Below, in pieces: positions 1,436-52,763 of a DNA stretch of 64,000 bases; within the stretch, counting starts at the first letter, position 1; each line of letters begins with the position of its first letter. Source of the DNA: Narcine bancroftii (taxonomy: Eukaryota). The notes under the pieces are model-generated. The model had not been told where the DNA came from, did not search any database, and saw only the letters and a list, made by a program, of their open reading frames with translations. The stretch lies in assembly GCF_036971445.1 (NCBI RefSeq), contig NC_091478.1:16988001-17052000 (forward strand). Reading direction: 5' to 3'. The translations under genes were made by a program, and so were the position numbers.

Positions 1436-1534
1436 CTGTACTACAGCCTTACTGCCACTGACTTCCAGAACTTGTCCACTTCTGATGGACCCATCGGGAA
1501 GAGTCAGATGCACAATCTCTGCATATCTTGGAAA
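1436..1534 (-). CDS. ATP6V1B: V-type proton ATPase subunit B, coding exon 3 ([33 protein letters not shown]); gene continues beyond the window start
   Basis: 99-nt exon, tttgacag|TTT...CAG|gtaggg, phase 0/0. Nearly identical to human ATP6V1B2 [33 protein letters not shown], and the exon size matches my recollection of the human gene. Confidence 0.95.
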
Positions 1535-1664
1535 CTGTCAAAGCATAAATAAACAAGAGCCATCAATTTTAATCCAATTTTAGCTAAAAATTACAGCACA
1601 AGCAAACTATACTTCTAAGTAAATCAACATTTTCTTGGAAAACCTGTTCAAGATATTTACCTTG

Positions 1665-2310
1665 ATGTTTTGATATGTGTTAATTTTATTACTTCTTTCT
1701 TTCTTTTTACTTTTCTTTTCATCAGGGATGTTTAAGAAGAGTTAATTTTACTGGATTAAAGAAGTTGGGGAGAAGAGATGTCATAAGATTTTGGAAAAAT
1801 GGTTAGGGTTAACAAGTTTTAAAAATAATTTGTAAGAGTTATTTTAACAATATCGCGCAAAAGAAATTTGATAATTATATAGGTTCAGAAATGGAAGATG
1901 ATGAAGCTGTACATTATTGAGATGATAATATTTGGGGTAAGAAATAGATAACATATTTTTTTTGAAATTATATAGCCTATATTTGTGAAATGATGTTTTT
2001 GAATGTTTAATATAATGATGATGAGATATAATGATTAATAGGAGATCCATTACTGTAAAATCAAGTACAATAATGTTAAGGGATATAATGTAATCTGACA
2101 ACATAATGTTGTAGTTTTTAATTTTCTTCTAGTTTGGATAATAGTTCTAAGGCATCTTTCTATTTTTTTTGGGTTCTTTTTTGATTTATTTTTGGGGATT
2201 TTTTCAATCATTTTTTATTTGGGGAGGGGAGATTAGATTTGGTTTGAAAGTCCATGAATTTTGAATGTGAATACATGTATGACTGAAAAATTTAAAGTCA
2301 AATTTTAAAA
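1665..2310 (+). mobile_element. 5'-truncated L1/Tx1-like 3' fragment in ATP6V1B intron 2
   Basis: Very AT-rich block ending in an A-rich tail, flanked by 15-bp direct repeats aagatatttaccttg (1650-1664) and aagacatttaccttg (2311-2325), consistent with a TSD. Confidence 0.6.
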
Positions 2311-2681
2311 AAGACATTTACCTTGTTTTGTTTGATGTTGTTTTATTCTTGCAAATTTCGGTACTCATTACACCAATCCCACAGATTTTCCCACAAAACA
2401 ATGACTTGCATGCTAATTCAAATGTTTAGCTATTAGCATTTTTATTGCACAACACTATATAACCCCAGAAGAAAAAGCACATTTTATTAAGCAGCTAAAT
2501 TTACATTTTGGGAGCAAGTGATTGAATGGATAGAGATGCTAATGAGAAGTTATTTGATAAGCATAATATCAACACAATCATTCATGCCAAAACATTTTAG
2601 TTATTTGGTTGGGGATCAAAATTATGCATCTAGTCAACATTCCAAATTAACCACAGCAAGTTATTTTGTGGTGATGAATAC

Positions 2682-2737
2682 CTTCACTGCATCCAAAACC
2701 ACCAATGGTCCATTTACAGCAGACACGGTCTTGTAGG
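2682..2737 (-). CDS. ATP6V1B: V-type proton ATPase subunit B, coding exon 2 ((T)YKTVSAVNGPLVVLDAVK)
   Basis: 56-nt exon, ttttaatag|CCTACAAG...GTGAAG|gtattc, phase 1/0. Matches ATP6V1B2 TYKTVSGVNGPLVILDHVK and is in frame with exons 1 and 3. Confidence 0.95.
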
Positions 2738-48804: not shown

Positions 48805-49976
48805 CTGTTTTATTTTTGCAATGCACAACAGTATATCGCATAAATATATGGCAGCCGACGTTGGTGCTAATTCGTCAAGCCAGATCTAGGCCAATGTTTA
48901 AACATAACCCAGTGACAAAAATACGCATTTCTCCAGTAATGTATCTATCTCAGACTTGAATGAAAGGTGGCAAGCCTAGAATCGTCCAATATTTTTACAA
49001 GTAAATTTTAAATTAAAGATTACATTAAATAAATGTAAACTGGAAGTGCTTACACGAAATATACAATTTCCTGCCAATATGACACAAAAAGTTCGTGGGA
49101 TTGTCTTAAATATAATTTATCTGTTTCCATTCAATGCACCTTGAATATCAATAGAATATACATGTACTTCCGAATTATTTTCGGAAACTCAGAAGGTTGA
49201 CAAATTGGGTAAACTAATTTCAGGTAGAATATTTGTTAACGCTGCCTGATTCTTACCTTGAGTTAATATGGAAAATGTTCGAGAAGATACCTTTGCCCTT
49301 CATAAGTAAAACAAACAATGCAAGAATAATGTAAACAATCACTACAGATATGGGACTTAAAAGCCTGTTAGGACAAAACTGCTCGAAATACCGGTTTAAA
49401 AGTAATATTGGAAATAATTATGCAGGCAAAACAAAATTACCACAGAAATTGAATTGTTCCAGTATTAATTTAAAATATAAGGTTAGCGCCAATGAACATT
49501 TGGTCAATTGAACAATTGCTAAGTTGTCTTTATTACTTAAGATTCCAACTCGAGTGGAATTTTCAGAAAGATGACTAGACCTCCCCCCCCCCTGCCCCCA
49601 CCACCGACAATATAAGAATCTTAACACAATATGCACCCCAATTAACTGTGTTCGTAACTGTATAAAAATTGAATGTTTTTCAATTTCTAAATCGTCCACT
49701 CGAGTTATATTAAATATATAGAAGTCTTGGAACTACTTAAGCATTGTCTCGGCCATAGCCAAAATGGAATTTAAAAAAATGTAATGAATCTTCACTAGGA
49801 GCTTAAAATTGTAAAATATTAACACAATTAATTAAAATAATACTAGCATGTTGACATACATCCATGCTGAGCCTTTGGGGGGTGGGGGGGGGGAGTAAAC
49901 TGCAAGGTATAGAACAGCAAAAACAAATACTTCAGAACAGACCATGTTAAGTTTAAACATGATTATCCATGTCTAC

Positions 49977-50164
49977 CTGAGTTTCTGACAAGTTGAGCTG
50001 CCGCGCCAGTTCCGTTCTTTCTCGTCCAACAACGTATTGGCAGCGTTGGAACTCCATTTCTAAACGATATAGCTGCTCAGCTGTGAAAGATGTTCGGGTG
50101 CGCTTGGGTCGATCAAGATCTAGCCCTTTGGGTAGAATTATTTCTCTTATAGATCCCTTTGCGT
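49977..50164 (-). CDS. VAX1: Ventral anterior homeobox 1, exon 2 (188 nt)
   Basis: atacag|AC GCA AAG...ACT CAG|gtagac; (D)[62 protein letters not shown]. Confidence 0.97.
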
Positions 50165-52525
50165 CTGTATGGTGGAAATGCAGTTGTCAGTTATTTTTCC
50201 AATCCAAGTAGCAGCATATTTAAGAACCATTCTCATTCTACAAATGGAAAAGGTCATGCTTGTACGTGGCGTATCTTTCCGAAACCGTCCACGTCTAAGA
50301 ATCGTGAATTCAATTTGTATAATTTTCATTCGGTGCTTTCTAAACACGGTTTAGTGGAATAATATCCCTCATCTGTTTAACGTTCTAGGTATTTTTCTGG
50401 TAAACAGGGTTTAAAATTGGCAGGCAGCACCCTTTTCTCAATGAAACCAGATCATCTACTTGTATTTGACCAAGTATATTCAAAGATAAACCAAGAAAAA
50501 TGTACATAAAACAGTATAACGGTTTCTGTAGCACATATACCCGACATTTCTGTGGTCTCCTCGATTCTAATTAGCGGTTGTTCCTCAAAAATACTTGACT
50601 GTTATATTTCAGTACGAATTCACTTGAGTTTACTACTTGGTTATAGGGGTTGAGAGAGAGTAAACGATAACATAAAAGGAAATGTATTTGGGGTAAATTC
50701 AAAATCATTATACTTGACATGCGAATCAAAGGGAACATTTAGTTCCCTTGAAACTCTGGAGAAATGAATTGAGAATCGAAACTTAACTTTCATTCTGAAA
50801 TGCTCATGGTTAGTTTGTGGCACTGTGAATTAAAAAAAAATGTTTTTTTTTAGTCCTGTTAATTACGCTGCGACTTCTCTCTTAAAGAAAGGACGTTTAC
50901 AAATTGGGCACAAACCACGTCGCAGTAACCTTACTGTTGAAAAAATATCCGGCTGCAAGGCGAGGTTAGCATCACCCACGGAACTTTGGTTTACACAAAT
51001 TAAAAGTCAATTGAAAAAAAATCAACAAAGTTACACAAAATGAGCCTTAACTAGAAAATAAAGGTCACCTAATGTGCTCATAATTGATACTACCAAAGCC
51101 AAAAAGAGTACAAGTTTCTACTCAGGGTCAAACTGATGCAAGGATTGCTTCGAATGCAATTCAACCTGACGCGCGTCTGGAGGCCAAGTGGTCACTGAGG
51201 GATTAACAATTGTTTATGGCAAGCATTACCTATTTCTTCAGAATTAGTACAGAAGTTTATCTATAAAAATAATATATAAAGTCAAAATACGCCACTGTTT
51301 GTTTCCTTGTAGTGTTATTTTAATTCTAAGCAATAACTTTAGGGTAGTAAAGCCTCCAGTTGCGAATAATAAAATAATAATTCTACAAAAATTCAAATAG
51401 ACATTTTAAAACAATAATAATTCAATAACTGAATCAATAGATTTTGGCCTGGAATAAACTGGAACCATTAACGATAGCTATTCAATTTCATGGTGGTAAG
51501 GCAAATAGTATTTTCCAATTGAAGTATTGTTTTGGACAAAGCAACGACGACTTGCTCAAACATGCATTTCAGCAAATGAATTGAACAGAATGCGTCAGTT
51601 CATAAAATCACTCAGAACGCTGATACAATATATGCACACGAATTCTATGGCCTTTAAACCAAAACTACCACGATAGTAATTTATCATGCAAACTGGGGTA
51701 TTCATTTTTAAATATTGCCCTCTGATCCACTAGCTCTTTCAGTAGACTTTTGTTCATGATTCTAATTTTATGATCTTATACTTGCAAATTAAGAATAATT
51801 AATTAGCATGTGGTCCTAATATAGGATCAAATTGTTTCTAAACTGAAATCATCGACCCAATCGTACAACATTAATACTTTTTCCATGGTGTCCTTTAATC
51901 CAAATTTGGTCTTAATCACCTCCATTCATAAAGTGATTGCAAATATTTGATGCCTTTCTGTAGTGAGCAAGACTGTGTTGACTTAAACCGCCGTGGCAGA
52001 CCGGGCGAGGTAATGATATCAGTAAAATCGATTACGTCCCGCGTATAGACGGTCAATTCCTTGCCTCGTTAGCGAGGGAACGCTGTTTAATCGGTCTCTC
52101 GTCAATTTGCCAAAACCTTTAACTGAACGTTTTGTGTCATGACCTTAAGATAGTTTTAGAACATTATTTTTTTAATTAACAGAATAGACAGGCAAACAAA
52201 AACAACATAAATTAAAAGGACCTCAGCTTGCTAGTAGCTGGAATAAATCCGGAAAAGAGGCCGGGAAAAGACAAAGAATCAAAAAAAAATAGAGGAAGAG
52301 GCAAACAGATTTTCTGGGTTTTTTTTAAAAATTTAATAGTGGACTTGTTTCTACAAGATCATATGGTATGACAAACACTTGGTTTTATGCGGACTATATT
52401 TGCAAAAAAAAAACAAATGCTTAAGCATAAAAATAAGTGGATACGTGTAGCAAAATGACCTAATTAAAAGAAAAACGGCAGATGAGAAAGAGAGAGAGAG
52501 AGAGAGAGGAAAAAAAACCGCTCAC

Positions 52526-52763
52526 CTCTAACAAGAATTCGTCTACAATAGTCCGGGTCAGTAGTACTAGATTTTGTTTTGCAGTCATCGGAGATTGCAG
52601 AAGCTGGGAAAGTCTCCTGCTGATCCTCCATCAAAGAATTCCGCAGGCTTCCGTGAGAATCCCGTGAACTCGAGCTGGTTTCTCTGCCTTCTCGGAGTCC
52701 ATTCTTTAAACCTCTGCTCGACTCAGCTTCCATTATTGGTTCTCGATTGCACCGGACTTCCAT
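52526..52763 (-). CDS. VAX1: Ventral anterior homeobox 1, exon 1 (238 nt coding)
   Basis: MEVRCNREP...DPDYCRRILVR, G|gtgagc donor, and an in-frame TAG just upstream of the ATG. Total CDS 238+188+486=912 nt (303 aa). Confidence 0.93.

Follow-up and report, generated by a model that had tools for sequence, protein, structure and literature searches.

An intact VAX1-linked gene of Narcine bancroftii is very probably atp6v1ba, the third V-ATPase B-subunit paralog

The window analyzed here, a 64,000-nucleotide stretch of the 3.3-Gb genome of the electric ray Narcine bancroftii (C22:16988001-17052000), contains the first three exons of a gene for the B subunit of the V-type proton ATPase (V-ATPase), hereafter atp6v1ba or Ba, and a VAX gene, both on the minus strand. 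Exon 1 of atp6v1ba (23991..24093, 103 nt) has its ATG at 24093, matches the start of protein record P0002 and ends at a phase-1 GT donor. It is followed by exon 2 (2682..2737, 56 nt), exon 3 (1436..1534, 99 nt) and the beginning of intron 3 (1..1435). An earlier note, made from the letters of this window, had described three in-frame exons of these lengths with canonical splice sites; they are present at the minus-strand positions it gave, with AG/GT borders and the reading frame kept, and every peptide string quoted there was located in the sequence. When 200 kb further to the left were added, exons 4-14 were placed at C22:16984935..16964934 with the open reading frame (ORF) intact, so that the downstream exons are not disrupted.

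The whole gene has 14 exons, an unbroken 501-aa ORF and GT-AG borders at 13/13 introns, and the lengths of its 12 internal exons equal those of both other B genes in the genome. The gene model does not differ in a single letter from P0002 (XP_069756149.1), which RefSeq names 'V-type proton ATPase subunit B, kidney isoform [Narcine bancroftii]'. Three Pfam domains, PF02874, PF00006 and PF22919 (ATP-synt_ab_N, ATP-synt_ab and VA_C), each score above the cut-off in the protein, and the ORF is therefore not a product of chance. Alignment with human B2 (PDB 6wlz_D, the closest solved structure) is gap-free over residues 7-500. G73 and L76, encoded in exon 3, are unchanged in the ray; they correspond to medaka G75R / human B1 G78R and L81P, described as disease mutations by Muller et al. 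2013 (PMC3827601).

The VAX gene is made of exon 1 (52526..52763), exon 2 (49977..50164, with the homeodomain, PF00046) and exon 3 to the stop codon (48319..48804), all on the minus strand, and encodes a 303-aa homeodomain protein. The distance from its stop codon to the ATG of atp6v1ba is 24,225 bp, which bears out the earlier statement that VAX1 is followed, about 24 kb downstream and on the same strand, by the B gene. Along C22 the order is SLC18A exons (plus strand, 17.111-17.127 Mb), an exon of a two-pore-domain potassium channel (K2P) carrying PF07885 (plus strand, 17.083 Mb), VAX (minus), ATP6V1B (minus) and a shootin-like gene (minus). The shootin-like exons (16.925-16.900 Mb, 40-65 kb downstream of atp6v1ba) include six exon matches to the catshark record P0134. 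This block fits the human order SHTN1-VAX1-KCNK18-SLC18A2, with the B gene inserted between VAX1 and SHTN1. Because the accession numbers of the catshark shootin-like record adjoin those of the catshark Ba orthologue, the same linkage is suggested for catshark.

The genome was searched for B genes by family and by protein, 44 candidates being scored in each case; the counts are lower bounds. Three complete multi-exon loci were found, not two, each with 14 exons and all intact: the window gene (C22, minus strand, 501 aa), a second copy at C5:102355113-102323821 (509 aa) and a third at C8:3609199-3550626 (502 aa). No fourth locus appeared among the candidates scored in either search. The start of the C8 copy lies 4,861 bp beyond a second VAX gene, as in the mammalian pair VAX2-ATP6V1B1, and the C5 copy stands head-to-head with SLC18A exons 13 kb off, as in the SLC18A1-ATP6V1B2 arrangement of human. 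Protein identity is 92.4% between the C22 and C5 copies, 86.5% between C22 and C8, and 87.2% between C5 and C8. Synonymous sites among the three genes are saturated (the proportion of synonymous differences, pS, is 0.76 for C22 versus C5), and dS is not estimable.

For phylogenetic analysis, 46 near-complete named records were selected by taxon spread from ~420 proteins and joined by our three gene models. Fish Ba rows were assigned by N-termini agreeing with the Ba rows of Fig. S1 in PMC3827601. In the resulting 49-row tree (LG+C20 PMSF), the window protein groups with rays (99/95) within a shark and ray clade (100/97) that is sister to eight actinopterygian Ba rows, and the clade made of the window protein, six chondrichthyan and eight actinopterygian Ba rows has support of 95/95. 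The C8 copy falls with B1 (100/98), the C5 copy with shark B2 (97/78), and Ba plus B2 are set apart from B1 and the invertebrate outgroup (100/98). A 25-row tree built on 479 core columns, with the termini removed and 24 rows (poor models included) left out for speed, recovered the same Ba clade (Shimodaira-Hasegawa-like approximate likelihood ratio test, SH-aLRT, 95.1; bootstrap 99). Hence, the VAX1-linked gene joins ray-finned atp6v1ba; it groups outside mammalian B1 and, in the best trees, outside B2 as well. Diagnostic sites, defined without our own three rows, gave 5/9 Ba, 2/7 B2 and 1/13 B1 sites in the window protein, while the C5 copy had 7/7 B2 and 0/9 Ba sites, and the C8 copy 7/13 B1 sites and 1/9 Ba site. 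The Ba-clade markers are N11, P13, A100, Y273 and V366. Taking loci, tree and neighbors together, we are highly confident that the window harbors an intact atp6v1ba, a third paralog linked to VAX1 that probably dates from the genome duplications of early vertebrates and is predicted to encode the B subunit of an intracellular pump. The proposal that a third ohnolog was kept at the VAX1 locus and lost in mammals is supported by the same three lines, although it is not new, having been published in 2013.

Several results weigh against this interpretation. Conservation of the protein is too strong for orthology to be settled by the tree alone, so that synteny decides, and VAX1/VAX2, SLC18A1/2, KCNK18 and shootin were named by position and motif, not by trees. 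B2 is not a single clade in either the 49-row or the 25-row tree, and Ba can therefore be read as lying inside B2. Four of the nine Ba sites are absent from the window protein, and the shared A100 is also found in shark B1. The approximately unbiased (AU) test does not reject a shark and ray clade grouped with all B2 and apart from fish Ba (p 0.19, 0.20), and of the two models only one rejects a B2 duplication restricted to chondrichthyans (p 0.17; 0.040). H6 and H7, two of the constrained trees, reached equal likelihood, and both probably collapsed. B1 branches are longer, so that the union of Ba and B2 may partly reflect B1 being pulled toward the outgroup. These data bear on the possibility that a cartilaginous-fish ATP6V1B2 duplicate moved beside VAX1, independently of fish atp6v1ba. 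Such an origin would agree with the identity of the window protein to its own B2 (92.4%, versus 86.5% to B1), with a Ba tail, RDS-KH, that resembles B2, and with the fact that grouping with B2 went unrejected under LG+G4 (p 0.17-0.19). However, the duplicate would have had to land exactly at the site of fish atp6v1ba and of the human pseudogene, both best trees unite the window gene and fish Ba at 95 or above, NGP, Y273, V366 and Q202-type residues are common to the window protein and Ba, and synonymous sites versus C5 are saturated. We thus regard a displaced B2 duplicate as very unlikely. Still less credit, indeed hardly any, can be given to orthology with ATP6V1B1, the kidney isoform, as the database label of P0002 and of 11/13 listed orthologues would have it: although B1 and the window gene each follow a VAX gene, it is the C8 copy, by the other VAX, that groups with B1 and carries B1 sites, the same 'kidney' label is borne by teleost Ba records, and the AU test rejects the window clade with B1 (p 0.021 under LG+G4, 0.016 under LG+C10). 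Orthology with B1 is thus refuted in this analysis, and the preferred reading remains that the gene is atp6v1ba.

Sisterhood of Ba and B1 is likewise rejected by the AU test (p 0.005 under LG+G4, 0.019 under LG+C10). It is likely that Ba is sister to B2 rather than to B1, the first duplication having separated B1 and the second Ba from B2. PMC3827601 leaves two topologies open and considers [Ba-B1, B2-B0] somewhat likelier, whereas our result favors [Ba-B2, B1-B0]. Lamb 2021 (PMC8040251) pairs human 8p and 10q within paralogon 14, against 2p/20p and 5q; therefore a Ba-B2 pairing is expected, in agreement with the present trees. In the listed part of Lamb's ohnolog table, there are no rows for atp6v1b, slc18a, gfra, vax or shtn.

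Ba-type records extend to 10 further genera of sharks and rays. In the cluster of P0003 (33 members), 13 of the 15 listed records, from 10 shark and ray genera, bear the Ba signature; 11 of these 13 are named 'kidney isoform' and two 'brain isoform-like', contrary to the 'B2-like' label anticipated in the earlier note. That note had also listed five substitutions as peculiar to this protein: ARVQ, VSAVNG and LDAVK are indeed private to the species, but NYCS and DGSIRSG are common to other rays or sharks. Most shark and ray records falling with B1 go by the name 'B-like' or 'brain isoform(-like)', and database labels in these fish run against orthology. Since the 'kidney' name is given to teleost Ba records too, the naming pipeline probably treats the gene as atp6v1ba already. 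The mismatch matters for the physiology of acid-base regulation in gills, as shark and ray 'kidney isoform' records are mostly Ba and true B1 is found under 'brain isoform-like' or 'B-like'. A pan-VHA-B antibody has been used on shark gills; Ba, B1 and B2 do not differ in its epitope, encoded in exon 10, and past antibody work therefore cannot separate the isoforms.

Upstream of the ATG lies a CpG-island promoter region (24094..24593, minus strand; GC 0.64, CpG observed/expected ratio 1.06); the promoter of the B1 copy is CpG-poor (ratio 0.37). The Ba region includes a 68-bp tandem duplication (24116-24263) with two matches to the cAMP response element (CRE) consensus TGACGTCA (24246-24239, 24178-24171) and one CACGTG E-box (24217-24212), all motif matches only. 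In intron 1, a 10-bp unit (AACCGTACTC) is repeated perfectly in tandem, with 58 copies at 5705-6287. A tRNA-Thr(TGT)-like element with many similar genomic copies (1357..1431, minus strand) starts four bases past the exon 3 donor.

As it is 92% identical to B2 and its conserved sites are intact, Ba would be expected to assemble into a working pump, as a non-catalytic subunit at a B position of the A3B3 head in V1, and may be structurally interchangeable with B2. The protein ends in KHQ and has no T-x-L tail, while shark B1 ends in GTHL and mammalian B1 in DTAL. NHERF-type docking is therefore unlikely, and Ba is probably not a plasma-membrane form docked through PDZ domains. We predict that it serves the intracellular proton pumps of lysosomes and neuronal vesicles. 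By analogy with medaka, a housekeeping and neural role in common with B2 may be proposed because the promoter is a CpG island and because, according to PMC3827601, medaka Ba is broadly expressed, enriched in both central nervous system and pronephros, and its loss is lethal and blocks lysosomal acidification.

An alternative is that orthology is as stated, yet ray Ba is specialized, in base-secreting cells of the gill or in electromotor synaptic vesicles, instead of broadly lysosomal. The coexistence of three isoforms makes specialization possible, past work with the shark-gill antibody was blind to the difference, and nine residues are private to N. bancroftii Ba. However, wherever the other vertebrate rows are invariant, none of these nine changes occurs, and as many are carried by the B2 and B1 copies (9 and 18), as a lineage rate would produce; for the same reasons, relaxed selection on this species' Ba was rejected. 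The CpG-island promoter, unlike that of the B1 copy, and the broad expression of medaka Ba (PMC3827601) are also at odds with specialization, which we consider improbable, if less so than the two alternatives of orthology above. A broader speculation combines retention of all three ohnologs in sharks and rays under swapped labels, a second-round sisterhood of Ba and B2 against the slight preference of Muller et al., and one isoform, invisible to pan-B antibodies, specialized either for electromotor vesicles or for secretion of base in the gill. We offer this combination tentatively, as a possibility with the balance tilted against it.

Two extra single matches were discarded as B loci. One is a fragment of the mitochondrial ATP synthase beta gene (F1-beta; C5, ~99.588 Mb, minus strand; L081:2176-3063) that lacks introns and is likely a processed pseudogene. 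The other, at ~86.2365 Mb on C9 (L082:2468-2566), is a 99-nt stretch with 98% identity to exon 7 of atp6v1ba, in which six bases run on into exon 8 instead of intron 7. It is likely a recent retro-fragment of spliced atp6v1ba mRNA, and the exon 7-8 junction may hint weakly at a spliced germline transcript. The last exon of the B1 copy (C8; L031:626-789) ends in GAQL, while five of six other shark and ray B1 rows end in GTHL or STHL and one in GTHM; the T of the PDZ-type tail thus appears to have been lost in this species.

Additional observations concern the neighboring genes. CpG counts are raised across and around VAX1 (42000-56000), as would be expected of a developmental gene whose enhancers are conserved. 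The second VAX gene (C8:3614061-3680070) contains an intron of 54 kb; its homeodomain (LESLEAEF, QRTELAAQL) is diverged, and its C-terminus is repetitive and altered, without the EPYSR end of the window VAX. A family search for SLC18A with TIGR00880 matched only unrelated genes of the major facilitator superfamily. A first SLC18A pattern gave no match, probably because it crossed an intron, and a shorter one matched the C22 exon only. In the SLC18A exon beside B2 (C5:102367901; L026:2901-3200), DYTLL takes the place of DNMLL, a hint that this may be an unusual VMAT1. A comparison of all ORFs between the C22 and C5 flanks by tblastn was swamped by repeats (at least 1952 rows), and the list of long ORFs alone was used. 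A shootin paralog may lie at C5:281105015-281105212, where a second shootin-like match (48% over 66 aa) was obtained at a great distance from the B2 locus.

According to PMC3827601, Ba, B1 and B2 are three paralogs from vertebrate duplications; Ba adjoins vax1 at an intergenic distance of 10-20 kb, and is kept in gar and teleosts but is a pseudogene in coelacanth, turtle and human. Its genome list includes no cartilaginous fish, and our literature search, outside which subscription journals and bioRxiv supplements lay, found nothing on three B genes in sharks or rays beyond that study. The presence of Ba in sharks and rays, the label mismatch and the likely Ba-B2 sisterhood are additions made here, and all are incremental to PMC3827601. 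In line with the prediction from two genome duplications, the documented three-gene set thereby shifts from the bony-vertebrate to the jawed-vertebrate ancestor.

Compared with ATP6V1B1, the kidney isoform, ray Ba also follows a VAX gene and shares exon layout and database label; however, ray B1 is the C8 gene, 4.9 kb away from the second VAX, and B1 residues P165, V168, N143 and F360 are absent from Ba. ATP6V1B2, the brain or ubiquitous isoform, resembles Ba in lacking a PDZ-type tail and is likely its sister from the second round of duplication, but ray B2 is a separate gene near SLC18A on C5, and the B2 exon 1 (…VNGA…) belongs to the C5 copy, not to Ba. The closest counterpart is teleost and gar atp6v1ba (vatB1), which is likewise downstream of vax1 on the same strand across a long intergenic gap, falls in the same clade in both trees, and shares NGP in exon 1, TACE, VQK, AEYL and GQVY (as compared with the Fig. 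S1 text of PMC3827601). It differs in the tail (RH in fish, KHQ in the ray) and in S37, D458 and R499, fish residues absent from the ray. Finally, ray Ba coexists with intact B1 and B2 genes, as in gar and unlike teleosts.

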